64,000 bases of DNA from Candidatus Buchananbacteria bacterium (GCA_041664165.1 JBAYLH010000006.1:143-64142); one strand, 5' to 3'; numbered from the stretch's first letter, positions 29,355 through 64,000 are shown. A program made the numbers and translations. The notes: generated by a model not told the origin, from the letters alone.

Positions 29355-29717
29355 ATGGCAAAAAAAATTCTAATTATCGAAGACGAAAAAGCGTTAATTA
29401 GGAATTTGGAATTGGCTTTACGCGATGAGTATGAAGTTTTAAGCGCCGTTTCGGCCGAGGAAGGTCTGAGTAAAATTAAAAAAAACAAACCGGATCTGAT
29501 TTTGTTGGATGTGATTTTACCGGACAAAGACGGCATTGAAGTTTTGCAGAAATTAAAGAGCGGCAAAGATACTCGCGATATTCCGGTGATTGTTTTGACC
29601 AATTTGAGCGACAGTGTTACGGTCAGTAAAATTTTGGCGGCCGGCGGCAAAGAGTATTTAGTGAAATCGGACTGGGGAATCAGTGAAATCGTTAAAAAAA
29701 TTGAAACTATAATTTAG
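29355..29717 (+). CDS. Stand-alone response-regulator receiver (CheY-like) protein
   Basis: The REC fold with a DLILLDVILPDKDG phospho-acceptor region. 120 aa, no output domain. Confidence 0.8.
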   Translation: MAKKILIIEDEKALIRNLELALRDEYEVLSAVSAEEGLSKIKKNKPDLILLDVILPDKDGIEVLQKLKSGKDTRDIPVIVLTNLSDSVTVSKILAAGGKEYLVKSDWGISEIVKKIETII

Positions 29718-47172: not shown

Positions 47173-47473
47173 ATATTTTTAGTATAACAAAAAACACCTC
47201 CCCCTGTTTACCGGCCCGCTATGCCGAAGCGTCAGCGAGGCGAGCAGGCAGGCGAAATAGGGGAGATGCCTTCTCCTGAAACTACGAACACTTTAGCAGG
47301 TTCAGGCGACCTACAGGAATTTCCGCCAGAGGCGGATCTGCTTTTTGTATTTAATAAGGTGGCGGGAAACCCGTAGCGAGAGTGCCACCCGCCCGCCTGA
47401 GCGGCAAATATAAAAGCACATAGGGGTGGCTAGAGGGAATCGTCCCGATTTTAGAATAATCAATCAACTCAAG

Positions 47474-47547
47474 GGTGGCCTACGGGAATCGAACCCGTAA
47501 CGAGAGTGCCACAAACTCTAGTGATAACCATTTCACCAAGGCCACCA
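47474..47547 (-). tRNA. tRNA-His (anticodon GUG) with encoded G-1
   Basis: RC reads G-GTGGCCTTGGTGAAATGGTTATCACTAGAGTTTGTGGCACTCTCGTTACGGGTTCGATTCCCGTAGGCCACC. Confidence 0.85.
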
Positions 47548-47617
47548 TAAAGCCACCTTTGAGTTGATATTGTCAATCGGGATCCCGACTTCATTAATAA
47601 TATAATAATTTTTTGGG

Positions 47618-47690
47618 TCGGGAAACCCTCAACGAGAGTGCCACAAACTCTAGTGATAACCATTTCACCAAGGCCACCATGGACTAATTT
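47618..47690 (-). pseudogene. Pseudo-tRNA-His: intact 5' two-thirds, deleted T-loop and lost 3' acceptor strand
   Basis: 47640-47690 is identical to 47497-47547. The T-arm is reduced to gggtttcccgac and the acceptor 3' strand is replaced by an A-run. Confidence 0.7.
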
Positions 47691-47704
47691 TTACCCTTAT
47701 CACT

Positions 47705-47776
47705 CGCCCCCGCGTGGAATCGGACCACGATCTAAGGCTTAGAAGGCCCTCGTTCTATCCATTGAACTACAGGGGC
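47705..47776 (-). tRNA. tRNA-Arg (anticodon UCU)
   Basis: RC reads GCCCCTGTAGTTCAATGGATAGAACGAGGGCCTTCTAAGCCTTAGATCGTGGTCCGATTCCACGCGGGGGCG. Confidence 0.8.
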
Positions 47777-48358
47777 TCAAGATAGGTTATGATATCAGAC
47801 TGAGACAGGGCGAGTGACAAGAGCAAAACCTTTTTCGTCCATATAAATTCATGAGAGTCAGGCGAGTCGGGCGGGGAAGGCTGTTGCTCTATCTAGTTGC
47901 TCGCCTCGCATCGCCAGCTAGATGGGCTACGGCGAAGCGGGAGCTACGGGATCTTATATTATTAGGCTCTCGCTTACCTCGCCTAAAATTTTTATTTTAA
48001 ACTATTTTTTTGAAAATGTAAGTCGACCTGCCCGCCAGCGGCTGCACCTTAGATTAGGGGTAAAATGTGACACCTGCCTATCGGCAGGCAGGAATGAGGC
48101 AGTCTTTACGGTAGCCTTTTTTTATTTGACTAACAAGAATAAATGTAGTCTATTATAAAATACGGGAAAAGTCAATTCAAATATTTATAAAAAATTTCCG
48201 CCGACTGCCTGAAAAGCCGGTTGGTTTTGGTGAAAAAGCAGTCGAAACTGGAAAGATAGGAACAATTGAAAAGAATGATTGGCAAAAACTATGAGTGGGA
48301 GTATACTTAAAATAGTCCTGTTTTTCGCTGGGTTAAAACATAATCAACAAGATAGGGT

Positions 48359-48757
48359 ATGCTAAAAAAATTATTTAGCAGAAAGAAATCAGCTCGCCGG
48401 GTTTTAATAGTCGAGGATGACGCGCTATTATCCAGAGCTATGGCCGAGAGTCTAAAAGCGGAAAAAGTCGAAGTTTTGGTGGTTGGTAACGGCTCAAACG
48501 TTTTGGCTGAGGCGATCCGATTTTCACCCAAGGTTATTTTATTGGATTTAATTCTGCCCGGTATTGATGGCTTTATGGTGTTAAAACAGCTTAAAGAAGA
48601 AATTAAAACTAAAAATATACCGGTGGCCGTTGTTTCTAACTTGGATCAAATCAGTGACGTTAAGTCGGCTAAGACCTTGGGTGCGGATCAATATTTTCTC
48701 AAAGCCAATACTAAAATAAATATTATTATTCAATATGTCAAAGATAAATTAAAATAA
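48359..48757 (+). CDS. Stand-alone response-regulator receiver protein
   Basis: REC domain with VILLDLILPGIDG, 132 aa. Confidence 0.8.
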   Translation: MLKKLFSRKKSARRVLIVEDDALLSRAMAESLKAEKVEVLVVGNGSNVLAEAIRFSPKVILLDLILPGIDGFMVLKQLKEEIKTKNIPVAVVSNLDQISDVKSAKTLGADQYFLKANTKINIIIQYVKDKLK

Positions 48758-48761
48758 TAAT

Positions 48762-49145
48762 ATGGCCGAAAACAAAAAAACAATTATTTTGATTATTGAA
48801 GATGACGAAGTATTGCTTCGAGCTTTATATTTGACTTTTCACAAAAGTGATTATACTATCGCCACGGCCACGGACGGCGACACGGGTCTTAAAATGGCCG
48901 AAAGAGTGAAGCCGGATATTATTTTTTTGGATTTATTGCTGCCGAAAATGAACGGTTTTGATTTTTTGAAAAATATTAAAGCCGACCCGGTTCTTAAAGA
49001 CATTCCCATTATCGTTTTATCTAATTTGGGCGATCAAGAAAATATTGATAAGGCTAAAGAATTAGGGGCTCTTGATTATTTTGTAAAATCCAATACCAAT
49101 CTAGTGAAATTAAGGGAAAAAATCGACCAAATGCTAAAAATGTAG
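48762..49145 (+). CDS. Stand-alone response-regulator receiver protein
   Basis: REC domain with IIFLDLLLPKMNG, 127 aa, directly after the previous REC gene. Confidence 0.8.
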   Translation: MAENKKTIILIIEDDEVLLRALYLTFHKSDYTIATATDGDTGLKMAERVKPDIIFLDLLLPKMNGFDFLKNIKADPVLKDIPIIVLSNLGDQENIDKAKELGALDYFVKSNTNLVKLREKIDQMLKM

Positions 49146-49197
49146 CTTAAAATCCTTGATTCGTTGATTTTGTAAATTTTTTAATTTTAAAAATCAA

Positions 49198-50019
49198 ATG
49201 AAAGACAAATGGCTAAACTTGGTTTTGCTTTTGACTAACCGCGTTTATCGCCGAAAGCAGCTCGTAATCGGCCAAATCGGGCTGGCGGCAATAATGAATG
49301 TTGTCGTTTTGGTTATTTTGGAAATGATCTTGGGTTTTATTTCCCTGCCTCTCTATTTGACTTTAAAACCGGAAAAAGTCGTTGCCTATTTCGCCGAAAA
49401 AGGCAGCTACGAAAAAGTTAACACCGATTACAATTTACGCCGAATTTTAACCGTTACCGGCGTGGGTCTGATTGCTTTGATTTGGGCGGTTAAGCTGCTG
49501 TTGATTTTAGTTTTTCCGATATTTTACGGGCCATTGCAGCTTTATTCCGTTTCCGGTTTACAGCCCGTGGATATTTTAAGCCAGGATTTAATAACTACCG
49601 AAACTGGCATTCAAACCGCGCGCCTCGTCGATTCAATGCCTAAGCCTCAAATCTTGCAAGTGCGAAAAGTCAGCGGGGGAGATTACGCTTTTTTCGGCAA
49701 AGGACAACCTGATACCCAGGTTGTTTTATTGTTATCTGATATTTCCACGGCCATTTATACCGCGCCCGTTGATAAAAACGGCAATTGGCGAATTGATCAG
49801 CAGCAAAAAAAATTCAAATTGAGCGAAGGCAATCACTCAGTTATAACTTTTAGCTATGATTCTAAACTGGGTATTAGAAGCCAGCCATCACCGCCGCAAT
49901 TTTTTAAAGTTACTTCTTCCTGGGCTGATTACCTGGTGAAAAATATCGATTCGTTTGCTAATTGGTCGGTGATAATTATTATTATATTTGGCATATTTTT
50001 AATCTTTTTAGTCGTCTAA
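49198..50019 (+). CDS. Membrane protein with N- and C-terminal TM segments; N-terminus is paralogous to the following giant protein
   Basis: MKDKWLNLVLL...KQLVIGQ...LPLYLTLKPEKV parallels MQARWLNLFF...KQKIIGA...LPIYILVPPTKV at 50024. Confidence 0.6.
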   Translation: MKDKWLNLVLLLTNRVYRRKQLVIGQIGLAAIMNVVVLVILEMILGFISLPLYLTLKPEKVVAYFAEKGSYEKVNTDYNLRRILTVTGVGLIALIWAVKLLLILVFPIFYGPLQLYSVSGLQPVDILSQDLITTETGIQTARLVDSMPKPQILQVRKVSGGDYAFFGKGQPDTQVVLLLSDISTAIYTAPVDKNGNWRIDQQQKKFKLSEGNHSVITFSYDSKLGIRSQPSPPQFFKVTSSWADYLVKNIDSFANWSVIIIIIFGIFLIFLVV

Positions 50020-50023
50020 CTGT

Positions 50024-53000
50024 ATGCAAGCTCGCTGGCTAAATTTGTTTTTTCGTTATTCCGGCTACACCTTTAAGTTAAAGCAAAAAATAATCGGCGC
50101 CGACAATTGGCTGGTCGCCGGGTCTTATGCCGTCTTGTTGATTGTTTCCGAATTGGGTTTTACGGTTGTGTCTTTGCCGATTTACATTTTAGTACCGCCG
50201 ACAAAAGTCCAGGAAGAGGGGTTTGTTTTTCCCAAAGCAATTAAAGATAAGCCGCAATTTCAAACTTATGCGGTCAGAAGGAAAATTAGCTTAGCTACTT
50301 TTTTTGGGGCGGGGGGGATTTTTTTATTAAAGCTTATTTTTATCGGTTTGGTTTCATCTTATCTTTTAGGGGCTCAAGCGCTTTTAGCCGCCAGCCAGGA
50401 TTGGAATTTCAGCACGGCAGGCGATTACACTTATCCGGCTGGTAAAATTGTAGTTACGGGTGGAGTAGCTCAACTAGTAGATCAAGGCACGGGCGGAAAC
50501 TGTTTGGGTACGGCAAATGCCTGCAATACTTTTGTTACCTCGCCAACTTGCATTGCCCAAGCCGGCTGTGCGTGGGGTGGAGCGGCTTCGGGTGCTACCA
50601 CTAATCCGGACTTTACCTCTAACTCCACTGGCTGGACCGGCGCCGACTGGCTCTGGACGGCGACGACGGAAACTCGGGTAACGTCGGGGGGTAATCCAAC
50701 CGCTTTTATTCAGGTTAATATTCCTAAGGCTAAAAATATCATCGGCGGGGGCTATTGGTATCAGGCATTCACGACGACGGCTGCTAATCCGACGGCGACG
50801 GTAAGCTTTGATTGGAAAAGTATTGCTTACGCCGCTGGCACCTCCGTAACGGCCTATGTTTTTGTTGATACCGGTTTTGGTGTGCCGACTATCGGTTCGC
50901 AGGTTTGGTCACAGACAATTACCGCTACAACGGCCTGGGCGTCGGTAACTAATATTAATGTGTCTTCAAAAGTTGCGGCGGCCGGAACTTATTATTTGAA
51001 AGTTGCTTACTATGTTACCGGCGGCAGTGGAAGTGTTGGCCCATTTACGGTTGGTTTCGATAACGTGCAGCTTAATTGGTCTAAGGCCGCCAGTTGCACC
51101 GGTACGCCAACGGCCTGCAATGCTTTTGTCACCTCGCCAACTTGCACCGCGCAGGGCGGTTGCGCTTGGAATACTGTGTCTGTTTATCCGACGGATTCTC
51201 CTGCCATTTATCCCAATACTTCACTGGCTCCCGCCGGGGTTACCAACTGGAATTTATTTACTGAAACCGCCACGAAAAACGGCGGTGCCATTAATTATCA
51301 GCTTTCCGATGATGAAGGTGTTACTTGGCAATATTGGAACGGCTCGGCTTGGGCCGCGGCATCTACCGCCGCTAATTCCAATTCCGCTTCGGTGATTAAT
51401 ACCAATATTGCTTCGTTTTCCGCCGCCGCCGGCAAAATAAAATGGCAAGCATTTTTAGTCAGCAACGGTTCGCAGCAGATTATCTTAGATAATGTTTCTA
51501 TCGGTTATACGCAAAATGCGGCGCCCAGTGTTCAAAGCTTAACGGCGGCGCAAGACACTTCTTCCGGTTTTGTCCGCATCAATTATAATTTGCAGGATGG
51601 TAATAGCGATTCAATCAATTTGGTAAATTATGAATATTCTTTAACCGGCGCTTTTACTGGCGAAGAATTACCCATGACTGCCGCTAGCGATCCGGCGCAT
51701 AGCGGAATAACCGCCTTGACCAGCTCGCCGACCGGCGTGGCTCACGCCTTTGTCTGGAATGCCGGAAACGATTTAGGGTCGGTGTTTGCCAATACTATTT
51801 ATATCCGGTTGCGCGCCTATGATGGCATCACAAATAGTGGCTATGAAGTCTCGGCGGCAGTGAGTGCGGACTACGTTTTACCGGTTGTTTCGGCGGTAGC
51901 CGCGGTGCAAATGCCGGCCAGCGCCGATATTCAAATTGGTTATAATTTGTTTGATCATACGGCGGATAATATTTTAGTTGAATTGCAAGTTTCTTCGGAT
52001 GGGGGATTGAACTGGACCGTGCCCGTTACATCAGTCAGCGGCGATATCGGTTCGACGGTTTCTAGCGGTAACGGCAAGTCAATCATTTGGCAGGCGGGTA
52101 CGGATTTTGCCAACCAGGAACAGAATAACATGATGGTTAGAGTCCGCGCCAAAGACAAATATCAAAATCAGGGTAATTATATTGACTCAGCAAGTTTTGT
52201 TTTGGATAATCGCGCGCCCATAATTGCCGCGCCGGTAAATTTATTAGCCCAGCCTTTGGCCGGCGCGACGACGGTTTTAGTTGGTGGGAGTTTTAGCGAA
52301 GGCAATCCCAATACTAATAATTTTTACGTAGCGCTTAATGGCAACGCTTACGGCTCAGCCGAAGCCGGCGATACCAATACGGCGACGCCTTCGGATAAAA
52401 GCGTTTCGGCGGCGGCAACTTTGGACGGCAATGATTATATTTCGGCGGTAAAAATAGAGCACGCTGATGATTTTGGCCATTTGACGGTTAATGAAAATAC
52501 TTCGCCCAACTCCGCCTATAAATATGTAAAGCCGTATACTCCGCCAGCGCCGACGGTCGGTGCTTTAGCGGAAAATTCCGTTGAGGTAACAATTAACAAG
52601 CATTCTGCCGAGACAGATGGCTTAAAATATGCGATTTTTGAAAACACGCAAAGTTTATACGTGCAAAGCGACGGCTCTTTGAATTCCAATCCGGATTGGC
52701 AAGCCGCGGGCACCGTTACGGTTACTGGCTTGTCGCAGCCGATTTCGCAATATATTTTTCAAGTCAAATCGCGAAATACCAGCGATACCGGCTTGGCAGC
52801 CACCAGCGAAAGCGATTATTCCAGTGGGGCTTCTTCCAGCTACCAATCCCCGCAGGTGGTTATTAATTCCGTCGCTCAGACAACGAATGACACTAAGTAT
52901 GTGGTGATAAATTACACCGGCACTGATCATCAAAATCAAGCGAACAATTTAACCAAATACGAATATTCCCTTAATGGTACGGATTGGCAAGTAATGACAG

Positions 53001-55654
53001 AAAAATCCGGAGTTGGCAGCGCCGGCGTAGCCAGTTTGGCGTTTACCGCCGCCGGCGCGAATTTGGTTTTTGCTTGGGATGTCGGAGTTGACCTGCCGAA
53101 TGTTGAAGATTCTACGGTTTATGTCCGGCTCGAGTCAAATGATTTAATTACCAATAGTAATCTGGCGGTTTCATCTGCCTTTGTTGTGGATACGGCCGGA
53201 CCGGTTGTTTCAAACATCCAGGCAATTCAAACGCCCGGCACTGACAACGTGTCAATTTCGTACGACTTAGCCGATGGTGCCGGCGCTAACAATGCCGTTA
53301 CTTTGTCTGTCTCCGATGATAGCGGCACTACTTATGCGGTGTCGGCGCCAAATAAAACCGGCGCTGTCGGCAGCGGCGTTACCGCCGGTTTGGCGCGCAG
53401 TATTGTTTGGGTGGCCGGCGTTGATTTTAATAATCAAGAAAACGGCACGATGAGAATAAAGATTATAGCGACCGACAGCTATGGCAATCAAGGCAGTTCC
53501 CTTGAATCAGCCGATTTTTCCGTGGACACAAAAGCGCCGGTCATTAGCGATGTGGTAGCGGCGCAGGATTCGGGCTCGGCTTTGGTGGCTGTTACTTATA
53601 CTTTGGCCGACTTAAGCTTAGCCGATGTTGAGTTTAGCGTTTCGGCTAATAGCGGCGGTAGTTGGATTGTCGCCACCACTACTTATATGGGTAATATTGG
53701 TTTAGGGCAGTCAGCCGGGGTTAAAAATTTTAATTGGAACGCGGGGACTGATTTTCCCGATCAAGAATTAGCAACTATGAAAGTTCGCGTCCGCGCCGCT
53801 GATGCTTTCGGCCATCAAAGCGCGGATGAAGAGTCATCGGATTTTAGCGTGAATACCAAAGTGTTGTCTATTGCCAATATTACCGCCGCGCAAGACCCGG
53901 GATTAAAAACCGTAACCATCCATTACGACTTGAATAAAACAGCCTCAATTTATCTGGATATTTCTGCTGACAGCGGAATGAGCTGGAATGTGGCCACCAC
54001 GACTTTGTCCGGACAGATCGGCGATTCTATCACCGCGGGAAATAATAAAACGGTAAGTTGGAACGCCGGCGTGGATTTTAATAACGACGAAAAAGCCAGT
54101 CTGCGCGTCCGGCTGAGCGGTATTGATAGCACCGGCGTGGCCAGCCCAGAGTATGAATCCGCGGATTTTTCCGTGGATACGGCGCCGCCGCTGGGCTTAT
54201 TATCTTTAAATAAATTCGCCAGTACCGATAATTCGGTTACTTTGGCTTGGGAAGCTAATACCGATGCCAATTTTAGCCATTATGAACTATGGCATGGCAC
54301 CAACCAAAATAATGTTGATAGCCGCAGCGGTGTTGCCAGTAAATGGAGCATAGCTAATGACGCTGCTTTAAATAATCCTTTGACTATTTCAACGATTATT
54401 ACCGGCCTAACTTTAACGACTGATTATTTCGTTAAAATTTGGGCCGTCGATGATTTTGGCAATGAAAAAACCGTGCCGGCAATTAATGTTTTTGAGGCTC
54501 CGATTCAAGCCCCGGCTCTGACGCCGATTTCTGAGCCGGAAGCGCCGCCGGCCGGTGGCGTGGTGCTTATTATTGATAGTGTGCCGCCGGCCAAACCGAT
54601 TTTAAACCCGCTTGTTACTCCGACCAAAGAAACTTTAGCGGTAATTTCCGGCTTAGCGGAAACTATGGCTAAAATTGATTTATATGATAATGGCGTTTTA
54701 ATCGGCCGGTTAGATAATCTGGCTGGCAGTGATGGTATTTTTAGCCAGGATTTTAATTTGAATTCAGGCGATCATTCTTTAACGGTTAAAGCGATTGATA
54801 GCGCCGGTAATGTCAGCCCGTTTTCGGATCCGGTAATTTTAAATATCACTACCTTGCCGCCAAGTGTTCCGATAATTTTAGCACCAAAAAATAACCTCAG
54901 CATTACGGCGGCGACGTTACAAATTGTCGGCGTGGCAGATGCCGATAATAAAATTCTCATCGCCGTTGATAACAATCAATTTACGGCTGCAAGCGACAGC
55001 AACGGAGCTTGGAGTTTTATTTTGCCCAGCACTTTCGCTTTAAGCGACGGCCAGCATCTAATTTCGGCTATGGCCTTGGACGCGGCGGGTAATCAAAGCG
55101 CGGCGGCGACTTTAACCATAACTAAAACAACGGTTAAAGCACCAGTCGTCCCGCAGGCTGGCAGCCAAGCCGCTGTTTTGCCAGTCGTCCCGCCGGTTTC
55201 CATAATCAGCGAGACGACTAAAGCCGTGGAATTGCCGGGTATTCCCGTACCAACTGTCACCACGGCCGGAGCGGCCGTCTCAGCGGCCGGCGATATTTTA
55301 AGTTTTTCCGGCACGGCTTTGCCTAATTCCGACGTGGTGGTTTACATCCATAGCGATCAGGCCTTGATTTATCAGACTCGCGCTGATGCCCAAGGCGCTT
55401 GGCGCGTTGACCATTCGCAAAGTATCGCGGAATTGGCGCCGGGAAATCATACGGTTTATGCCGTCTTAGTTGATCCGGCCGCTAAAATAAAAAGCCAGCC
55501 CAGCGCGGTGGCCACCTTTACGGTTAGCCGCAATTTTTGGGTGATGGTGTATCAGTATTTAAATTGGCAGACGACAGCAGTAACTTTGATAGTTTTATTA
55601 CTGGCAATTTTTTGGCTCTATCGCCTGCGAAAAACGCCTAATATTATAAAGTAA
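50024..55654 (+). CDS. Giant surface protein (1876 aa) with N-terminal membrane anchor, many about 100-aa Ig/fibronectin-like repeats and a C-terminal TM + basic tail
   Basis: Repeated modules (Y.L.D....N...YEYSL.G..W and V...A.D.Y.N.G), Thr/Ser/Ala-rich composition, and a C-terminal hydrophobic segment followed by YRLRK. Confidence 0.75.
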   Translation: MQARWLNLFFRYSGYTFKLKQKIIGADNWLVAGSYAVLLIVSELGFTVVSLPIYILVPPTKVQEEGFVFPKAIKDKPQFQTYAVRRKISLATFFGAGGIFLLKLIFIGLVSSYLLGAQALLAASQDWNFSTAGDYTYPAGKIVVTGGVAQLVDQGTGGNCLGTANACNTFVTSPTCIAQAGCAWGGAASGATTNPDFTSNSTGWTGADWLWTATTETRVTSGGNPTAFIQVNIPKAKNIIGGGYWYQAFTTTAANPTATVSFDWKSIAYAAGTSVTAYVFVDTGFGVPTIGSQVWSQTITATTAWASVTNINVSSKVAAAGTYYLKVAYYVTGGSGSVGPFTVGFDNVQLNWSKAASCTGTPTACNAFVTSPTCTAQGGCAWNTVSVYPTDSPAIYPNTSLAPAGVTNWNLFTETATKNGGAINYQLSDDEGVTWQYWNGSAWAAASTAANSNSASVINTNIASFSAAAGKIKWQAFLVSNGSQQIILDNVSIGYTQNAAPSVQSLTAAQDTSSGFVRINYNLQDGNSDSINLVNYEYSLTGAFTGEELPMTAASDPAHSGITALTSSPTGVAHAFVWNAGNDLGSVFANTIYIRLRAYDGITNSGYEVSAAVSADYVLPVVSAVAAVQMPASADIQIGYNLFDHTADNILVELQVSSDGGLNWTVPVTSVSGDIGSTVSSGNGKSIIWQAGTDFANQEQNNMMVRVRAKDKYQNQGNYIDSASFVLDNRAPIIAAPVNLLAQPLAGATTVLVGGSFSEGNPNTNNFYVALNGNAYGSAEAGDTNTATPSDKSVSAAATLDGNDYISAVKIEHADDFGHLTVNENTSPNSAYKYVKPYTPPAPTVGALAENSVEVTINKHSAETDGLKYAIFENTQSLYVQSDGSLNSNPDWQAAGTVTVTGLSQPISQYIFQVKSRNTSDTGLAATSESDYSSGASSSYQSPQVVINSVAQTTNDTKYVVINYTGTDHQNQANNLTKYEYSLNGTDWQVMTEKSGVGSAGVASLAFTAAGANLVFAWDVGVDLPNVEDSTVYVRLESNDLITNSNLAVSSAFVVDTAGPVVSNIQAIQTPGTDNVSISYDLADGAGANNAVTLSVSDDSGTTYAVSAPNKTGAVGSGVTAGLARSIVWVAGVDFNNQENGTMRIKIIATDSYGNQGSSLESADFSVDTKAPVISDVVAAQDSGSALVAVTYTLADLSLADVEFSVSANSGGSWIVATTTYMGNIGLGQSAGVKNFNWNAGTDFPDQELATMKVRVRAADAFGHQSADEESSDFSVNTKVLSIANITAAQDPGLKTVTIHYDLNKTASIYLDISADSGMSWNVATTTLSGQIGDSITAGNNKTVSWNAGVDFNNDEKASLRVRLSGIDSTGVASPEYESADFSVDTAPPLGLLSLNKFASTDNSVTLAWEANTDANFSHYELWHGTNQNNVDSRSGVASKWSIANDAALNNPLTISTIITGLTLTTDYFVKIWAVDDFGNEKTVPAINVFEAPIQAPALTPISEPEAPPAGGVVLIIDSVPPAKPILNPLVTPTKETLAVISGLAETMAKIDLYDNGVLIGRLDNLAGSDGIFSQDFNLNSGDHSLTVKAIDSAGNVSPFSDPVILNITTLPPSVPIILAPKNNLSITAATLQIVGVADADNKILIAVDNNQFTAASDSNGAWSFILPSTFALSDGQHLISAMALDAAGNQSAAATLTITKTTVKAPVVPQAGSQAAVLPVVPPVSIISETTKAVELPGIPVPTVTTAGAAVSAAGDILSFSGTALPNSDVVVYIHSDQALIYQTRADAQGAWRVDHSQSIAELAPGNHTVYAVLVDPAAKIKSQPSAVATFTVSRNFWVMVYQYLNWQTTAVTLIVLLLAIFWLYRLRKTPNIIK

Positions 55655-55661
55655 TAATTTT

Positions 55662-58643
55662 ATGCCTAGGAAAAATCAAATTAACGCCATTTGTCTTTCG
55701 TCGGTTCAGGGCGATGAACAATATCGGCTTTTATTTAATCATATTCCCGACGCGGTTGTCATTGCCGATTATCACGGCTGGATTTTAAATGTTAACGAGG
55801 CGGCTTGCCAGTTATTCGGCTACCCCAAAAAAGAATTATTGTCCATGAGTATTAAAGCCTTGCATCCCAAAGCTTCGCGCCGATCAACTTTTGCTTTATT
55901 CAAGCAAATTGTCAAAAGAAGATCTCGAAGCTTGTTTGACATTGATATTATCACCAAAGGCGGCCAAGTCAGGCATACCAACTTAAATGTCAATTTGATC
56001 GAGTCGGCCGGTCAAACCAGATTGATGGGAATTTTTCGGGATGTTACCGAAAAAAAAGAAACGGAGCGGCGCTATGAAACTTTAGCCAAAATGGCCAATG
56101 ACAGTATTTATTTGTTGAATAAAGACGGCGTGGTTATTTATGTCAATGAATTCGGCGCCAAACAGCTTAACGCCAAGCCGGCTGAAATTATCGGTCAAAA
56201 GATAAAGGCTTTGTTCCCGCCGGCAATTTATAGACGGCAGAAAAATAATCTGGATCAAGTTTTCAAAACCGGCCGGCCAAGCTACTATGAAAATTTGTCA
56301 TCTTTTTCTTTCAGACCGGTTTGGCTTTCAACCAAATTAACGCCGATAAAAGATCAGCGAGGCGGAGTTGAAAGCGTGATGGGTCTGTCGCGCAATATTT
56401 CGGAAAGCTACGCTATTCAAACAAATCTAAAACAAGAAACTTCATTGTTGAATTCCATCACTCAGACATCGCTGGAAGGCATTTTGGTAATTAGTAAGGC
56501 CGGCAAGGTCGTCTTCTGCAACCAGCAGTTTCTTAATTTATGGAAAATTCCGAATAGATTGGCAAGTTTGAAAGATGACAAAAAATTATTGGCTTATGTC
56601 GTCAGTCAATTGGCCAAGCCGAAGGAATTTTTAGCTAAAGTTAATTATCTTTACCGCCACCCTTCATTAACTTCGTCTGATCAGATAAATTTTAAAGATG
56701 GCCGGGTGTTTGACCGGCAATCGATTCCGCAAAGTATCGACGGGAAAATCGTCGGCCGAGTTTGGCGCTTTAATGATATTACCGAAAACCAAGAACGTCA
56801 AAACCAGCTGGTTTTATCCGAGCAAAAGTATCGCCGCTTATTTGAGGCGGCAAAGGATGGCATCCTTATCCTTGATGCCGAAACCGGAGAAATCAGGGAA
56901 GTTAACCCGTATTTAATTCAGATGCTGGGCTATAGCCATAAGGAATTTTTGAAACGGAAGCTCTGGGAAATTGGTTTATTTAAAGACATCGTTGCTTCCA
57001 AAGAATCATTTGAGCAATTGAAACGCAAAAAATACATCCATTACGAAAATCTGCCTTTGCGGACGAAATCGGGCATGACTTTTCACGTGGAGTTTGTCAG
57101 TAATGTGTACCTGATTGACCATACGAAAGTTGTCCAGTGCAACATTCGCGATATTACCGCGCGGTATGAAGCGGAAGAGAATTTAGCCAATAACGAAGCC
57201 CGTTTCCGGGCGATTTATGAAAATAGTCCGGTGCCGATTTTTTTAATCGGGTTGGACGGCCGTTTTTTAAATGTGAATTTAGCCGCCGTTAAAATGCTTC
57301 AGTATTCGCAAAAGGAATTGCAAAAATTAACTTTCGGCGATATTACCCATCCGGAGGAAGTTAAAAGGGATGTGGCAAAAGTCAAAGAATTGATAAGCGG
57401 TAAAATTTCCAACTATGACATGGAAAAGCGCTACCTACGAAAAGACAAAAAAATTATTTATGTCCATATTAGCGCCACTCTGGTTAGAGACGTCAAAAAC
57501 AAACCGGCATATTTTTTGACGATTGTCGAAGACGTTACGGATCATCATGAGTATTTGGAAAGAATCCGGCAATCGGAAATAAAGTACAGCACTCTGGTGG
57601 AAAACAGCAATGATGCGGTTTTAGTCATTCAAGATGGACTATACAAATTTGCCAATAAAAGTTCGGAAAATATTACCGGCTATAAAGCTAAAGAGGTGCT
57701 GGGCAAGCCGCTGATAGATTTCGTATCGCCTAAAGATAAAAAAAGGGTGATGGATATATATGTTAAGAGAATGAGGGGCGAACAAGTGCCTAGCCGGTAT
57801 GAATTTGAGGTTGTAAAAAGAGATGGCAGTTTGCTGCCGATCGAAGTCAGCAGCTCGGTCGTGGAATTCGACGGCCAGCCGGCGGTAATGGCGATTATTC
57901 GCGATATCACTAAAGCCAGGGAAATTGACCGGGTAAAATCGGAATTCATTTCGGTTGCTTCGCATCAATTGCGCGGGCCGCTGACCGGCATTAAATGGTT
58001 TAGCCAGCTATTGATAGACGAAAAGGCGGGCAAACTAACACCCAAGCAATTTGATTTTCTAAGGCAGGTTTACAACAGCAATGAACGGATGATCAGCTTG
58101 GTTAATGATCTGCTTGATGTTTCCCGCATTGAAACCGGGCAAAAATTCGTACTTGAAAAAAAACCAGGCGATATCGTTATTTTGATAAATAATGTAATTA
58201 AAGATCAAAGGATTAATTTGCCGGTAGAAAATATAAGCATAAAGTTTGACAGATCTTTTCCCGATAAACTGGTTTTTAATTTCGACCAAGGTAAAATTTA
58301 TCAAGCTTTTTCCAACTTAATCAGCAATTCGATCAAGTATTCCGGCAAGGATAAAAAAATAATTATCGGCCTAAAGCGTTTGGGCGACAAGGTTGAGTTT
58401 TTTGTTAAAGATTTCGGTTTCGGCATCCCTCAAAATCAGCAAAGCCGGGTCTTTCAGAAATTTTTTAGAGCCGACAATACCGCCAACATATCGACCGAAG
58501 GCACGGGCTTGGGTCTTTATATCGTCAAAGGCATCGTGGAGGCTCACGGCGGCAAAGTCTGGTTTGAATCGGCGGAGAATAAAGGAACAACTTTTTATAT
58601 CGTTTTGCCGCTGAAAAATCAAAAAAATCCCGATATTAAATAA
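55662..58643 (+). CDS. Cytoplasmic multi-PAS sensor histidine kinase
   Basis: At least 5 PAS/PAC repeats, HisKA (SHQLRGPLT) and HATPase_c (GTGLGLYIVKGIVEAHGGKVW). No TM segments. Confidence 0.85.
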   Translation: MPRKNQINAICLSSVQGDEQYRLLFNHIPDAVVIADYHGWILNVNEAACQLFGYPKKELLSMSIKALHPKASRRSTFALFKQIVKRRSRSLFDIDIITKGGQVRHTNLNVNLIESAGQTRLMGIFRDVTEKKETERRYETLAKMANDSIYLLNKDGVVIYVNEFGAKQLNAKPAEIIGQKIKALFPPAIYRRQKNNLDQVFKTGRPSYYENLSSFSFRPVWLSTKLTPIKDQRGGVESVMGLSRNISESYAIQTNLKQETSLLNSITQTSLEGILVISKAGKVVFCNQQFLNLWKIPNRLASLKDDKKLLAYVVSQLAKPKEFLAKVNYLYRHPSLTSSDQINFKDGRVFDRQSIPQSIDGKIVGRVWRFNDITENQERQNQLVLSEQKYRRLFEAAKDGILILDAETGEIREVNPYLIQMLGYSHKEFLKRKLWEIGLFKDIVASKESFEQLKRKKYIHYENLPLRTKSGMTFHVEFVSNVYLIDHTKVVQCNIRDITARYEAEENLANNEARFRAIYENSPVPIFLIGLDGRFLNVNLAAVKMLQYSQKELQKLTFGDITHPEEVKRDVAKVKELISGKISNYDMEKRYLRKDKKIIYVHISATLVRDVKNKPAYFLTIVEDVTDHHEYLERIRQSEIKYSTLVENSNDAVLVIQDGLYKFANKSSENITGYKAKEVLGKPLIDFVSPKDKKRVMDIYVKRMRGEQVPSRYEFEVVKRDGSLLPIEVSSSVVEFDGQPAVMAIIRDITKAREIDRVKSEFISVASHQLRGPLTGIKWFSQLLIDEKAGKLTPKQFDFLRQVYNSNERMISLVNDLLDVSRIETGQKFVLEKKPGDIVILINNVIKDQRINLPVENISIKFDRSFPDKLVFNFDQGKIYQAFSNLISNSIKYSGKDKKIIIGLKRLGDKVEFFVKDFGFGIPQNQQSRVFQKFFRADNTANISTEGTGLGLYIVKGIVEAHGGKVWFESAENKGTTFYIVLPLKNQKNPDIK

Positions 58644-58667
58644 TAATTTAATAAGATTGCAAAAACT

Positions 58668-59039
58668 ATGAAAAAAATTCTGTTAATCATTGATGATGAG
58701 CCGACCGTTCTTGAAGCCCTATCATCACAGTTTGATCAAGAAAAGGTCAGCGTTTTAACGGCTAAAGACGGCCAAGAAGGCTTAAAAATTGCTTTGGAAA
58801 ATCATCCGGATTTGATTTTGCTTGATTTGATAATGCCTAAAATGGACGGGATGACGATGCTAACCAAATTAAGAGATGACGAATGGGGCAAAACCGCCGA
58901 GGTAATAATTTTAACTAACTTAAGCGATGCCCAAAAAGTCGCCGAAGCGGTCGATCGCGGCACTTATGAATATTTAGTCAAAGTAAATTGGAATGTCAGC
59001 GACGTGGTTAATAAAGTTAAGAATAAATTGGGCTTGTAA
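58668..59039 (+). CDS. Stand-alone response-regulator receiver protein
   Basis: REC domain with LILLDLIMPKMDG, 123 aa, 25 nt after the kinase gene. Confidence 0.8.
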   Translation: MKKILLIIDDEPTVLEALSSQFDQEKVSVLTAKDGQEGLKIALENHPDLILLDLIMPKMDGMTMLTKLRDDEWGKTAEVIILTNLSDAQKVAEAVDRGTYEYLVKVNWNVSDVVNKVKNKLGL

Positions 59040-59240
59040 TTTGTTTTTCGGTTTTTCTTGTCTTGGCAAAGGGGATACCCCCAGAGAAGGAAGCTGACGC
59101 TGGGAAAACAGTTGAAATAATTAGAATTTCAAATATTGCAAAATATCGCTAAAATTTGCGAAGATTATAAGGGAGAGGGTATAATATAAATAAGGTAAGA
59201 TTAGTTTAAATATACAAAATTACTCTTAAAAATCAAATTT

Positions 59241-60440
59241 ATGAAAAAATTTGTTAAAGGTTCAGCCTCAGCATTAGCTGTTTTTTTTGTGTTTGTTCTG
59301 ATTGGAACAAACACCGTGCTTGCGGCTACGTCGCCATCTCTTGGATTGGCGGCCACCTATGGTGTTCTCGGTAGCACCTATACCAACACAACGGCAGGAA
59401 CGACGATCACCGGAGATATCGGATTTACCACCGGACCAGCGGTTGCTCCCTTGGGCGTTCACACAAACTACGGATCTGGCGCTCCGTATGCTACGGCCGG
59501 CACAGATCAGGGCAGTGCCTTATCTAGTTTGGCTTCTCAGCCGTGTACATTTACTTTTGCGCCCGGAGCGATTAATCTCTCTACTGATACGACCCACGGT
59601 GCTATCGGTGTGTATGCTCCCGGAGTATATTGCAGTACGGGGGCGATGAATGTAGGCGGTCCGCTTACTCTTAGTGGCAGTGGAACGTACATTTTCAGAC
59701 CCGATGGCGCGCTTAATTCGACGGCCGGCGCGGTTGTTACTTTGGCTGGTGCCTCAGCTTGCGATGTTTTTTGGACACCAACAGCGGCGACAACACTTGC
59801 CGCCAATACGACGTTTGTGGGAACAGTAATTGATAATTCTGGTATTACCGTGGGTGCTAATACTACGTGGACAGGAAGAGCCTTGACGTATGGCGGAACG
59901 GTTACGACCGATACGGACACCATTACCGTACCGACTTGCGCGGTCTCCCCAGCCACTCTCCATATCATCAAAACAGTTATTAACGACAATGGCGGCACCA
60001 CAGCTGCTTCCAGTTTTAATCTACATGTAAAACTTTCCGGGACTGACGTTTCAGGAAGTCCGGCAAGTGGAACGGCTTCGCCCGGAACTTCTTATTCACT
60101 GGCTGCCGGTACGTATGTAGTGAGTGAAGATTCAAATGCCTCTTATACGCAAAGTTTCAGCGGGGATTGTAATTCAAGTGGCAGTGTGACGCTGGCTGCC
60201 GGCGACAACAAGACTTGTACGATTACCAATAATGACATCGCGGCTGTGGTCGTTCCACCGACCCCAACGCCCACGCCAACACCTACACCTACACCTACGC
60301 CTACACCTACGCCCAGTCTTCCAAATACGGGAATCGATCCTAGCAGCAGTAGCAGTGTTTCCTGGAATGTTATTATTCCGATTGGTATTTTTGTTGTTCT
60401 ATTTTCGCTCTACCTGGCGCGAAAGAAATTGGCAATTTAA
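59241..60440 (+). CDS. Secreted DUF3494 (ice-binding-like beta-helix) protein with (PT)n linker and LPNTG sortase signal
   Basis: Signal peptide, LGLAATYGVLGSTYTNT...GDIG N-terminal DUF3494 signature, PTPTPTPTPTPTPTPTP, and LPNTG + TM + RKK. Confidence 0.7.
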   Translation: MKKFVKGSASALAVFFVFVLIGTNTVLAATSPSLGLAATYGVLGSTYTNTTAGTTITGDIGFTTGPAVAPLGVHTNYGSGAPYATAGTDQGSALSSLASQPCTFTFAPGAINLSTDTTHGAIGVYAPGVYCSTGAMNVGGPLTLSGSGTYIFRPDGALNSTAGAVVTLAGASACDVFWTPTAATTLAANTTFVGTVIDNSGITVGANTTWTGRALTYGGTVTTDTDTITVPTCAVSPATLHIIKTVINDNGGTTAASSFNLHVKLSGTDVSGSPASGTASPGTSYSLAAGTYVVSEDSNASYTQSFSGDCNSSGSVTLAAGDNKTCTITNNDIAAVVVPPTPTPTPTPTPTPTPTPTPSLPNTGIDPSSSSSVSWNVIIPIGIFVVLFSLYLARKKLAI

Positions 60441-60456
60441 CCTAAGTATTGCATGT

Positions 60457-62628
60457 ATGAAAATATTTAATAGAAATTCAATATTAACCATATTAGTCAT
60501 TTTCTTTATGCTTGTTGCGCTCGGCCTAGCTGGGCCGAACGTTGTTTTAGCGGCGGCTACTGCGCCCACTTTGGGTAACGCGGCAAGTTTTGCGGTTTTG
60601 GGCGCCTCGACCGTGACAAATACTGGATCTACGGTTCTCCATGGCGATCTCGGACTTAGCCCGGGTACTTCAATCACTGGTTTTTTTGGAACCGTTGCAA
60701 ATGACGGCCCGGGAGTTTTTACCGGACATGCGGTTCATCAAACCGATGCAACGGCTGGTTTGGCGCAGACGGCTGCTACTAGCGCCTACGGTGATCTCAA
60801 TCAGGGGTGCGACTTTGGCCCCTTTGGTCCGACCGATTTAGCCGGACAAACGCTTGTTCCGGGCGTTTATTGTTATTCATCGTCGGTTCAGATATCGTCG
60901 GGAGGAGTGCTCACTCTTAATGCCCAGGGCAACCCCAATGCCGTTTGGGTCTTTAAAATTGGCAGTACACTCACAACTATTTCGGGCGCCTCGGTTGTAT
61001 TTAGTAATCCAGGCGTAGGTACTCCGGGTTGCAACGTGTATTGGCAAGTTGGCAGTTCAGCGACTCTCGGTACAACCACGACGTTTGTTGGAACCATTAT
61101 TGCAGCTGACGATATTACGCTGAATACCGGCGCAACCGTAAGCGGCAGAGTCTTGGCGCGCGGCGTGGCCGCTGATGGTGCCGTAACTTTGGATACCAAC
61201 ACCATTACCGTGCCGACCTGCGCAGCCGTTCCGTCTTTAACTCTCAACAAAATTTTAGTCAAAGACAACGGCGGCACCGCTGTTGAATCAGATTGGACTT
61301 TAACGGCAACTGGCCCGATAACTTTGACTGGTTCTGGTGCCGCTGGCTCTACTGACGTAGTCAGCGACGGCACTTTTTCAGCCGGCACCTACACCTTATC
61401 TGAATCAGGACCAGCGGGTTACAGTACTTCCTTATGGACATGCACGAATGGTATTACTGTTGCTAGCGGCCAAATTACTCTGGCCAATGGACAGTCAACA
61501 GTCTGTACAATCACTAATGATGATATCGCGCCTCAACTCATTGTGAACAAGGTTATCGTTAATGATAGCGGCGGCACTAAGGCGATTTCTGATTTTCCGC
61601 TCTTTATCGACGGCAGTAGCGTGGTATCGGGAGTCGCAAGTACTACTGTGACAGGATTACACACAGTTTCCGAAACTTCTGATTCTGATTATGTGGCCAC
61701 CATTAGCGGCAATTGCGCTGCGGATGGTACGATTACTCTTGCATTGGGTGATGTGAAGACCTGTACCATCACTAACAACGACATCGCACCAGTTTCATCA
61801 GGTGGCGGCGGAGGTGGCGGCAATGCGCCTGTACCACCTCTTATTGATGTAGTAAAAGTACCCAGCCCTTTAGCCCTACCAGGTGGTTCAGGTTTGGTAA
61901 AATACACTTACACCCTTCGCAATATCGGAACGGTTCCGGTGAGCAATGTAACAATGGTCGGCGACACTTGCAGTCCTATAACATTAATTTCTGGTGATGC
62001 TAATGCCGACGCCAGGCTCGATTTGAATGAAACTTGGATCTACACCTGTTCCAAGACGCTTTCAGAAACTCACACGAACATTGTTACGGCGACTGGCTGG
62101 GCTAATGGCATAAGTGCAACCGATATCGCCAACGCGACGGTTGTTGTCGGCTTACCGGTCGTGCCACCCTTAATTCATGTAACCAAAGTTCCCAATCCGC
62201 TGACGTTGCCGGCCGGCGAAGGAATGGTTACCTACGCCAATAAAGTTACCAACCCGGGAACAGTCGCCTTAAGCAATATCAGTCTTTCTGATGATAAATG
62301 TAGCCCTGTGGGATATATTTCCGGCGACACAAACAGCGATTCAAAACTTGATATCACGGAGACGTGGACCTATACCTGTCGCATGAGACTTACTAAAACC
62401 ACGACAAACACCGTTACCGCCAAAGGTGAAGCCAATGGTCTGATGGCGAGAGATTTCGCGATTGCGACCGTGGTTGTGGCTCCTACCGTTGCAGCTACTG
62501 CCGTTCCGGCACTGCCGGATGCAGGGATTGCCCCTGACCAGAAAGGTATTTCATGGAATATCATTATACTCTTTAGCATCCTCATATTAGTTTTAACTTC
62601 GTTTATTATAATTCCCCGCCTGCGCTGA
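60457..62628 (+). CDS. Secreted DUF3494 (ice-binding-like) protein with tandem Ig-like domains, Gly7 linker and LPDAG-type sorting signal
   Basis: Start at MKIFNRNSILTILVIFF (signal peptide). LGNAASFAVLGASTVTNT...GDLG is paralogous to 59241. C-terminal LPDAG + TM + PRLR. The ORF-track N-extension from 60232 is an alternative frame of the (PT)n repeat. Confidence 0.7.
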   Translation: MKIFNRNSILTILVIFFMLVALGLAGPNVVLAAATAPTLGNAASFAVLGASTVTNTGSTVLHGDLGLSPGTSITGFFGTVANDGPGVFTGHAVHQTDATAGLAQTAATSAYGDLNQGCDFGPFGPTDLAGQTLVPGVYCYSSSVQISSGGVLTLNAQGNPNAVWVFKIGSTLTTISGASVVFSNPGVGTPGCNVYWQVGSSATLGTTTTFVGTIIAADDITLNTGATVSGRVLARGVAADGAVTLDTNTITVPTCAAVPSLTLNKILVKDNGGTAVESDWTLTATGPITLTGSGAAGSTDVVSDGTFSAGTYTLSESGPAGYSTSLWTCTNGITVASGQITLANGQSTVCTITNDDIAPQLIVNKVIVNDSGGTKAISDFPLFIDGSSVVSGVASTTVTGLHTVSETSDSDYVATISGNCAADGTITLALGDVKTCTITNNDIAPVSSGGGGGGGNAPVPPLIDVVKVPSPLALPGGSGLVKYTYTLRNIGTVPVSNVTMVGDTCSPITLISGDANADARLDLNETWIYTCSKTLSETHTNIVTATGWANGISATDIANATVVVGLPVVPPLIHVTKVPNPLTLPAGEGMVTYANKVTNPGTVALSNISLSDDKCSPVGYISGDTNSDSKLDITETWTYTCRMRLTKTTTNTVTAKGEANGLMARDFAIATVVVAPTVAATAVPALPDAGIAPDQKGISWNIIILFSILILVLTSFIIIPRLR

Positions 62629-62786
62629 AGCTTCCGCCTCCGCTGATGCTTCGGTGGACAAGTCGGCGGGCAGGTAATAAAATATATAATCTAGGCGGCA
62701 GGATTAACAAATGTGCTCAGTAATGGATTTCTTTTGGAGGTAAGAAAGGCTCCGCTTAGACGGAGCCTTTCTATTGTTGATTATTT

Positions 62787-63812
62787 ATGCCATCGAAAAT
62801 CTCATTAAAACAGCCATTGTTAATTGCCAGTATTGTGGGAATTGTATTTTATTCAGTAATTATTTTATTTCTGATTTTTGGTTCGCCTGTTCAGGGTTCT
62901 GATACAAAGCCCGCCTCACCGACCAATAGTCAGGCTTTGCAAAATTTAATTGACGGAAAGTCAGTCGAAGCTATCTGGGGTATCACTTTTCCAAAACAAC
63001 CGAGCCTGCCTGCCGGCCAGGCAGGTGCGGGGCTGCCAATTCGTCTAAAAATTCCAAAGATTAATATTAATATTGCTCTTGAGTCGGTAGGTCTTACGCC
63101 TCAGGGAGCGGTGGATGTACCAAAAGACCCCGCTAACGCTGCCTGGTTTAATCTCGGGTCGCGTCCCGGAGATAATGGTAGTGCCGTTATTACCGGCCAT
63201 TATGGCTGGTGGAAAGACGGTACGTCCGGGATATTTAATAATTTATCTAAATTAAAAAAGGGAGACAAAATATACGTCCAGGATGACAAAGGAACAATTA
63301 TTACCTTTGTGATTAGTGAATTTCAGACGTATGATCCGAATGCGGATGTTCCAGAAGTGTTTAACTCAAATGACGGAAAAGTACACCTTAATCTCATCAC
63401 CTGCGAAGGAGTTTGGAATAAAAGTGCCAAACAGTATTCCAAGCGGTTAGTGGTGTTTGCCGATAAAGAAGAAGTAAACAGCAGCAATCTGATCGCATTT
63501 GCTGGCGTGATGTCCGCAGCATCTGCCCCGGCTGTTGTGACGCCTGCCCCCGCGGCTCCCGCGGCCTGCACTACTGCCGCCACTTTTACCAAGTTTTTGT
63601 CTTTTGGGAGTACTCAAAAGCAGGTTCGCCAGCTTCAAAATCTCCTGCAGTGTCTGGGCTACTTTCCGGCCGATGTCGCGCCGACTGGCTATTTCGGTCA
63701 GGCGACCGAAGATTCAGTCAAAAAATTTCAATCGGCAAACGGCATTGAAGCTGCTGGTTATGTGGGACCAGCTACTCGCTCGGCTCTTAATCATTATGTC
63801 GTGATGAAATAA
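62787..63812 (+). CDS. Sortase (TLxTC cysteine transpeptidase) fused to a C-terminal peptidoglycan-binding domain (PG_binding_1-like)
   Basis: N-terminal TM anchor, LNLITCEG catalytic Cys motif, and C-terminal LQNLLQCLGYFPADVAPTGYFGQATEDSVKKFQSANGIEAAGYVGPATRSAL. Confidence 0.7.
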   Translation: MPSKISLKQPLLIASIVGIVFYSVIILFLIFGSPVQGSDTKPASPTNSQALQNLIDGKSVEAIWGITFPKQPSLPAGQAGAGLPIRLKIPKININIALESVGLTPQGAVDVPKDPANAAWFNLGSRPGDNGSAVITGHYGWWKDGTSGIFNNLSKLKKGDKIYVQDDKGTIITFVISEFQTYDPNADVPEVFNSNDGKVHLNLITCEGVWNKSAKQYSKRLVVFADKEEVNSSNLIAFAGVMSAASAPAVVTPAPAAPAACTTAATFTKFLSFGSTQKQVRQLQNLLQCLGYFPADVAPTGYFGQATEDSVKKFQSANGIEAAGYVGPATRSALNHYVVMK

Positions 63813-64000
63813 GAGATTAAGTTTTTTAAAAGGGTTTAATTAATTATTATACCATCGTGAGCTTGCTCCGAGGTTACTTTGCAAGGAAGAGTTTGAGAAA
63901 CCATCGGTTTTTCAATGAAAAAATATTCCTTACTATACCTCGTCAGCTTGCTGCGAGGTAGTTGATTTAAAACAAGCCTATTATTGATGTGTAATATAAT

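Follow-up and report, generated by a model that had tools for sequence, protein, structure and literature searches.

The region described here, positions 48359-63812 of a 64-kb window of DNA from a Candidatus Buchananbacteria bacterium, an ultra-small member of the Patescibacteria, holds nine open reading frames (ORFs), all on the plus strand. An ORF check and a Pfam profile search find the nine genes at the coordinates where the original prediction, an annotation made from the sequence without database searches, had placed them. Every domain that it assigned is confirmed, as are its LPNTG and LPDAG signals, and the profile searches that it proposed for DUF3494, Big-type and sortase domains uphold the assignments. 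The genes fall into two modules. Module A (48359-59039) encodes, in order, two single-domain response regulators (the receivers REC-A and REC-B), a conserved 273-amino-acid (aa) membrane protein that we call TM273, a giant surface protein, a soluble histidine kinase and a third single-domain receiver. Module B (59241-63812) encodes two DUF3494 proteins with C-terminal sorting signals (cargo 1 and cargo 2), followed by a sortase. The original prediction had taken the whole region for one regulated system. We are confident instead that it consists of two independently conserved Patescibacteria modules, which are neighbours in this genome. The window comes from a 66.4-kb contig of a metagenome assembly in ENA, and that contig extends past window position 64000.

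The two modules are conserved separately. For module A, a metagenome scan provided 80 loci with a gene for the 273-aa protein. Those of at least 12 kb, 33 in number, all share one order: a receiver about 800 nucleotides (nt) before the TM273 gene, a receiver about 400 nt before it, TM273 itself at 0 and, at +764 to +947, a giant gene. The 1 kb 5' of the TM273 gene contains two receivers in 53 of the 58 loci that could be judged, and a gene with the giant-type N-terminal module stands directly 3' of TM273 in 58 of 59. Three contexts that were looked up individually have two receivers 5', a giant gene 3' (encoding 3181, 2741 and 4674 aa) and a PAS kinase nearby. No DUF3494 or sortase match appears in any of the 80 loci, a count that is lessened in force by the many loci in which the giant gene reaches the end of the fetched DNA and the 3' content is unseen. 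Several loci, including L136, L160 and L161, can be followed for several kb past the module and still have neither match.

For module B, a one-genome-per-species scan found at least 546 sortase relatives, and the counts given here are from the best 80 loci. These are in Patescibacteria metagenome-assembled genomes of many classes, and they were analyzed over flanks of 10 kb on either side by our own ORF calling and phmmer. Among the 69 species-representative loci with at least 1.5 kb of upstream sequence, a same-strand DUF3494 ORF ends within 1 kb 5' of the sortase gene in 60 and within 2.5 kb in 65. The flanks contain 85 DUF3494 ORFs, every one in the same orientation as the sortase gene, and 80 of these lie no more than 4 kb 5' of it. 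In three relatives that were examined manually, a DUF3494 protein with LPNTG or LPKTG, a transmembrane (TM) segment and a basic tail is encoded directly 5' of the sortase, in neighbourhoods that are otherwise unrelated. Many species have a single cargo gene. Matches to the giant protein or TM273 occur in 0 of the 80 sortase loci, while receivers are found within 10 kb of the sortase in 11 of them and kinases in 16. Because the pairing is conserved across Patescibacteria, the sortase can be taken to serve the two DUF3494 proteins, and the original prediction is supported on this point. It had also staked its case on the genes staying clustered in relatives. The region as a whole does not stay together, its halves being split in the 160 related loci, but neither half is scattered. 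One conserved operon spanning the whole region was considered and is rejected by the synteny counts.

Module A has the parts of a two-component system. The receivers REC-A (48359-48757, 132 aa, Pfam Response_reg E=5.7e-19), REC-B (48762-49145, 127 aa, E=8.3e-24) and the third one (58668-59039, 123 aa, E=1.6e-24) have the acidic pocket, Asp, Ser/Thr and Lys. Response_reg is the sole Pfam domain in each, in agreement with the prediction that they lack output domains. None of the receivers has the DNA-binding output of a transcriptional two-component system, and Pfam finds no DNA-binding domain in any module A protein. REC-A and REC-B represent two orthologous groups with the phosphorylation residues all kept. 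The REC-A orthologues, about 800 nt 5' of the 273-aa gene in related loci, have a median identity of 56% and retain the EDD, phospho-acceptor Asp, Ser and Lys positions. The REC-B orthologues, about 400 nt 5' of the gene, have a median identity of 65%. The 993-aa kinase (55662-58643) contains HisKA with its His (H-box residue ~768) and HATPase_c. It had been described as having at least five PAS domains and no membrane segment. Pfam gives five PAS stretches and a PAS_7 match, that is, five to six PAS domains, and the maximum Kyte-Doolittle 19-residue mean of 1.28 indicates no hydrophobic segment. Orthologues of about 990 aa are encoded 3' of the giant gene in 10 related loci, in four of which (L092, L136, L159 and L164) a receiver follows the kinase. 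In about eight others, the kinase is instead just 5' of the REC pair. In a variant of the module, L090/L137 (JGI Ga0233431_1000265), three additional receivers and a PAS kinase of 1773 aa stand upstream, preceded by a CLIPPER-domain protein. Two receivers come after the giant gene in this variant, and the giant gene itself is split into ORFs of 386 and 2741 aa.

TM273 (49198-50019) has no Pfam match. A helical membrane module at its N-terminus is followed by a single Ig-like domain and, at the C-terminus, by a TM helix. A search returned 174 homologues, nearly all of 272-275 aa and 50-78% identical, without a Pfam domain; the mean column identity of the alignment is 65%, and clustering at 50% leaves roughly 70 full-length representatives. 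The protein has the properties by which the family can be recognized: its length, the module WLN...K...E...SxPxY...YxxRR...K, the Ig-like domain, the C-terminal TM helix and a position between the REC pair and the giant paralogue. A fragment 100% identical to TM273 is deposited under the name Patescibacteria group bacterium. In the AlphaFold2 model (predicted local distance difference test score 71.6), a disordered linker joins four helices at the N-terminus to an Ig-like sandwich of seven strands, and a helix forms the C-terminus. In a fold search with this model, the Ig-like domain resembles domains of the adhesins Bap and SiiE, and the helical membrane module finds no structural match.

The giant protein (50024-55654, 1876 aa) is homologous to TM273 at both ends, and the two are thus the paralogous membrane anchors that the original prediction took them to be. 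Residues 1-62 are 34% identical, and the C-terminal Ig-like domain and TM helix align at 30% identity (E=5e-11). Many giant proteins match a TM273 search through that same C-terminal part. The invariant N-terminal residues common to both proteins are W5-L-N, K20, E42, S49xPxY53, Y78xxRR82 and K99; K20 and R81-R82 form basic segments of the shared module. E42 (49321-49323) lies in the first hydrophobic helix and K99 (49492-49494) in the second, and both are invariant across the TM273/giant family. Such a buried Glu/Lys pair suggests a salt bridge or an intramembrane switch.

Between its conserved ends, the giant protein has two 4-Cys motifs, six repeats of about 110 aa that form beta-sandwiches, and fn3 and Big-type domains, which Pfam places near the C-terminus. 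The 4-Cys motif, C-x6-C-x8-C-x5-C with the consensus C.GT..AC..FVTSPTC.AQ.GCAW, occurs at 50501-50569 (residues 160-182) and 51095-51163 (residues 358-380). These two copies hold all the cysteines of the protein, and they flank a region of about 170 residues resembling a carbohydrate-binding jelly roll. The six repeats (51512-52189 and 52835-54199) were detected by fragment-based self-comparison, and each carries an Asp-box-like motif, S-x-D-x-G-x-[TS]-W. The repeat is confidently predicted as a beta-sandwich, and a fold search with it gave no PDB match better than E=0.066. Pfam searches with pieces of the protein at E<=1 added just faint BNR/Asp-box and reelin-subrepeat-B hints. Giant-type genes in relatives encode from 217 to more than 4600 aa.

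The two cargo proteins of module B are 37% identical. Cargo 1 (59241-60440, 399 aa) consists of a signal peptide, a DUF3494 beta-helix, one SpaA_2 (CnaB-like) domain, a Pro/Thr linker, LPNTG, a TM segment and RKK. Cargo 2 (723 aa) has a signal peptide, DUF3494, two SpaA_2 domains, two DUF7507/CLIPPER_2 domains, LPDAG, a TM segment and a basic tail; its gene (60457-62628) starts at 60457 and not at the mechanical ORF start of 60232. The Pfam profile for DUF3494, Ice_binding (PF11999), has a gathering threshold of 28.7 and matches cargo 1 with 77.9 bits and cargo 2 with 180.4 bits. Sorting signals of the kind that had been predicted are present at both C-termini, as LPNTG...RKKLAI at 60318-60440 and LPDAG...PRLR at 62512-62628, with hydrophobic segments at the N- and C-terminal ends of the proteins. 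No other protein of the window has one. Across the relatives, the signal is conserved in a family-specific form longer than the textbook one: LPNTG, [FIL]-x-P-[ED], four to six polar residues, W-N, the TM segment and RKK, with the Trp standing 9-11 residues past the motif in 43 of 80 related ORFs. The SpaA_2 domains contain Lys/Glu/Asn triads (K244/E296/N330 in cargo 1, K265/E316/N354 and K365/E406/N440 in cargo 2). SpaA_2 and CLIPPER_2 have been described as stalk domains of fibrillar adhesins with predicted isopeptide bonds (PMC12617251).

The sortase (62787-63812, 341 aa) has a TM anchor at its N-terminus, and an Ala/Pro linker connects its catalytic domain to a C-terminal PG_binding_1 domain, the peptidoglycan-binding module that it had been said to carry. 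The Sortase profile (PF04203) matches with 81.4 bits against a gathering threshold of 26.6, and H138, C206 (in LITC) and R220 are invariant in 35 homologues. Of the NCBIfam sortase classes, class F (NF033748) scores best at 110.7 bits, which is below its curated cut-off of 166; class C scores 34.4, class E 28.9 and class D 17.6. The enzyme is therefore best described as class F-like, in a divergent Patescibacteria branch. A total of 2907 homologues were detected, mostly Patescibacteria proteins of about 220 aa that NCBI names class F sortase. The PG_binding_1 match (PF01471) has 61.2 bits against a gathering threshold of 23, and the sequence matches the peptidoglycan-binding domains of 1LBU and 4LPQ. 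Fusion to this domain is a minority state among the homologues and had more than one origin. The domain is at the C-terminus here and in the two closest relatives (P0002 and P0003). In six others (P0040, P0043, P0044, P0046, P0052 and P0108), it comes after the signal sequence and before the catalytic domain, and in P0099 an N-terminal SLH domain takes its place. Wall-binding domains of two families were thus fused repeatedly, at either end, in this sortase clade. Several of the N-terminal fusions have a seemingly cleavable signal peptide instead of a membrane anchor, in which case the enzyme would be held by the wall alone.

The original prediction described the genes as separated by short spacers. 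This is true within module A, where the gaps are 4-52 nt, and not of two spacers of 201 and 158 nt. The first is AT-rich, lies at the boundary between the modules 5' of the first DUF3494 gene, and contains a promoter-like site on the plus strand (TTGCGA-18-TATAAT, 59156-59185; a consensus match only). The second is 5' of the sortase gene and holds a terminator-like, GC-rich hairpin with a 12-bp stem on the plus strand (62743-62772), between the cargo and sortase genes. Hairpins of this kind are common at this place. In a comparison drawn from the cargo-sortase spacers of loci L009-L088, the best hairpin has a folding free energy of -15 kcal/mol or lower in 38 of 44 related spacers versus 16 of 43 coding controls; the medians are -20.0 kcal/mol for the spacers and -12.9 kcal/mol for the controls.

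Some features of the surroundings can be recorded here. A promoter-like site (TTGGCA-17-TATACT, 48279-48307, plus strand; 10/12 in a consensus scan, a consensus match only) lies 52 nt 5' of module A. Immediately 5' of the module are tRNA-His and tRNA-Arg genes (47473-47776, minus strand), where several relatives have a gene encoding about 800-830 aa, in L091 a leucyl-tRNA synthetase; hence, conservation of module A does not extend to its upstream flank. The locus had been thought to end with the sortase gene. On the source contig, it is followed by a gene for a 369-aa soluble histidine kinase (L001 11229-13156, just past window position 64000), the N-terminus of which is made of repeated coiled-coil-like units (KLAVTAKEKEDVR), and then by genes for two receiver-only proteins of 127 and 134 aa. 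The 18 kb from 48.3 kb to the contig end thus contain five receivers and two kinases. The 64-kb window itself has four receivers and a single kinase. That kinase and three of the receivers are in 48359-63812, and the fourth receiver is the orphan at 29355 found in a scan of the window, which agrees with the predicted total of four. The receivers of the window, like the pair that follows on the contig, are all 120-134 aa long and consist of the receiver domain only. The surface-protein genes (59241-62628 and 50024-55654) have a G+C content of about 0.47-0.50, as compared to about 0.38-0.42 for the signalling genes (48359-50019 and 55662-59039). This probably reflects an Ala/Gly/Thr-rich composition and not a foreign origin.

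We put the probability that our explanation of both modules is right overall at roughly 0.65, and its parts are not equally firm. Module B is probably a dedicated sortase with wall-anchored DUF3494 cargo, to judge from the domains and the pairing. It is established for sortases that they cleave after the Thr of an LPXTG-type signal and transfer the protein to peptidoglycan precursors. Here, the cargo would be exported by Sec and held by its C-terminal TM segment, and the membrane-anchored sortase would cleave after the Thr or Ala of LPNTG and LPDAG and transfer the cargo to peptidoglycan precursors, with PG_binding_1 keeping the catalytic domain against the wall. The hairpin probably would terminate most transcripts, yielding much cargo and little enzyme. 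The product would have a short CnaB/CnaA-like stalk, probably locked by isopeptide bonds, with the DUF3494 beta-helix as its head. It is most likely a wall-anchored fibrillar surface protein, serving as an adhesin or surface-layer component and not as an antifreeze.

For module A, we propose tentatively that the receivers act on TM273 and the giant protein by direct coupling. In this proposal, the soluble multi-PAS kinase would sense a cytoplasmic cue and phosphorylate the single-domain receivers, and the phosphorylated receivers would bind the N-terminal module common to both membrane proteins, at its cytoplasmic or intramembrane face. This binding would alter the state of the giant Ig-repeat surface protein, a form of inside-out control. 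Binding of the receivers to the module is favoured because there is no DNA-binding output and because the receivers have a fixed position before two membrane proteins. More speculatively, the module might be an integrin-like adhesion switch, working inside-out or outside-in in bacteria that probably live attached to host cells, with the invariant buried Glu of the first TM helix and Lys of the second as part of the switch.

The most direct rival is the single system of the original prediction, in which the PAS kinase and receivers control the sortase display of the DUF3494 proteins. All the genes are indeed contiguous on one strand here, the five receivers and two kinases in the 18 kb around the cassette compare with one receiver in the other 48 kb, and a few other sortase loci, such as L007, have a kinase or receiver within 10 kb. 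Yet the two halves are never together in the 160 related loci, and in the closest relative (78% identity), a different secreted protein is encoded after the third receiver. The spacer with the promoter-like site falls exactly at the boundary of the modules, and Pfam finds no DNA-binding regulator present for transcription of the cargo genes. We consider control of the display by these signalling proteins unlikely. Within module B, it is also improbable that the sortase polymerizes DUF3494 subunits into a SpaA-type pilus or fibre. The absence of a [YFW]PK/YPK-type pilin motif from both cargo proteins, and from 100 DUF3494 ORFs at sortase loci, stands against it, as do the lack of any lysine between residues 6 and 244 of cargo 1, the class C sortase score of 34.4 bits against a cut-off of 160 and the single cargo gene of many species, even though two paralogous LPXTG proteins adjoin a dedicated sortase as at pilus loci and SpaA_2 domains are present. 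The poor class C score and the missing pilin motif are the places where this pilus model was weakened. Strong Ice_binding matches in Pfam raise the idea that the DUF3494 proteins are true ice-binding proteins on the cell, either ice adhesins or recrystallization inhibitors, and the role of an ice adhesin has been proposed for a Shewanella frigidimarina protein joining DUF3494 to tandem beta-sandwich domains (Vance et al. 2018, as cited in PMC11645318). We rate this as very improbable here. The scores of 29.5 and 81.9 bits for the two cargo proteins miss the NCBIfam NF045625 equivalog cut-off of 400, and hundreds of Patescibacteria species have the cassette, given the at least 546 sortase relatives. 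DUF3494 proteins are also common in habitats that do not freeze, groundwater among them, and have been suggested to bind surfaces other than ice there (PMC11645318). By its distribution, ice binding seems unlikely as a general function of the cassette. Wall-anchored display by a dedicated sortase accounts for module B better.

For module A, a serious alternative is the opposite direction of signalling: the giant protein and TM273 would be sensors of surface contact or mechanical force that inform the PAS kinase, and the receivers would act elsewhere. Accessory membrane proteins that feed sensor kinases are known, as with LiaF-LiaS and BceAB-BceS, and the arrangement would give a role to a kinase that belongs to the conserved module and has no membrane sensor of its own. 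However, the kinase gene changes position, being either after the giant gene or 5' of the REC pair, while the two receivers are fixed directly 5' of TM273, and this contrast points to a link between the receivers and the membrane proteins. The five to six PAS domains, moreover, already give the kinase cytoplasmic sensing. We consider it rather unlikely that signals run outside-in with the receivers acting elsewhere, and we keep receiver-to-membrane coupling as the working model. Some observations weigh against parts of the explanation adopted here. TM273 and the giant protein have two N-terminal hydrophobic helices and one C-terminal, and read naively, this places the Ig-like domains in the cytoplasm. 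To have them outside requires that the first hydrophobic helix be re-entrant or peripheral, and this membrane topology is the weakest point of both the inside-out and the outside-in model. That the receiver genes are tightly syntenic with those of the two membrane proteins is evidence of a functional link and not of physical binding. Module B comes directly after module A on the same strand, and some read-through or lineage-specific co-regulation is possible. Finally, the hairpin ends 15 nt before the sortase ATG with no Shine-Dalgarno sequence visible, and the class F score of the sortase is below the curated cut-off.

Both modules have partial counterparts among known systems. The sortase resembles the class F sortases of Actinobacteria, such as SrtF of Cutibacterium acnes, in its fold, His-Cys-Arg triad and N-terminal anchor, and it also resembles dedicated sortase-substrate pairs in having an LPXTG-type substrate encoded beside the enzyme. 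It differs from the actinobacterial enzymes in its sub-cut-off score, its fused wall-binding domain and its Patescibacteria host, and also in that the cargo is almost always DUF3494, with the signal LPNTG-x-x-P-[ED]-x(4-6)-W-N before the TM segment. The cargo shares its head family with the type 1 DUF3494 ice-binding proteins and, with the Shewanella frigidimarina adhesin, the plan of a head, a beta-sandwich stalk and an attachment. Unlike these, it would be anchored to peptidoglycan by a sortase through a SpaA_2/CLIPPER_2 stalk, in carriers without a known ice association. Fibrillar adhesins with isopeptide stalks of CnaB/CnaA-like and CLIPPER domains (PMC12617251) likewise have a head, a SpaA_2/CLIPPER_2 stalk with triads and a C-terminal wall anchor, but here the head is a DUF3494 beta-helix and the stalk is short, with one to four domains.

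For module A, the likeness to the Lap system (LapD/LapG/LapA) is one of concept: a cytoplasmic signal acting via a membrane protein sets the state of a giant repeat-rich surface protein. None of the nine proteins is a LapD (HAMP-GGDEF-EAL) or LapG, and type I secretion and RTX domains are likewise found in none of them. The signal in module A would be phosphorylated receivers, there are no c-di-GMP domains, and the giant protein is membrane-anchored at both ends. Compared to CheY-FliM, module A has receivers that lack an output domain, keep their phosphorylation residues and are encoded beside a presumed membrane-associated target. It differs in having no chemotaxis or flagellar genes, and the presumed target would be a new membrane module.

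Literature searches found no paper linking DUF3494 with sortase or with Patescibacteria, and searches combining CPR, sortase and LPXTG, or Patescibacteria, giant and response regulator, returned nothing relevant. Module B is a known kind of system in a lineage for which we found no description. Module A is the more novel part of the region. It is composed of known parts (a PAS kinase, CheY-like receivers and Ig-repeat proteins) in an arrangement for which we found no description, and it centres on a new conserved membrane module.

The Patescibacteria are a large share of bacterial diversity, and the cultivated ones live attached to host cells. To our knowledge, their surface molecules, type IV pili apart, are almost uncharacterised. 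In most species in which it is found, the Patescibacteria sortase is apparently dedicated to one cargo family, DUF3494 heads on isopeptide-type stalks. DUF3494 thereby gains a context other than ice, that of a covalently wall-anchored surface fibril, which becomes a candidate for binding to hosts or substrates. With module A, two-component signalling that has no transcriptional output and is tied to a giant surface protein becomes open to testing. Such non-transcriptional control, if true, would suit tiny genomes with few transcription factors.

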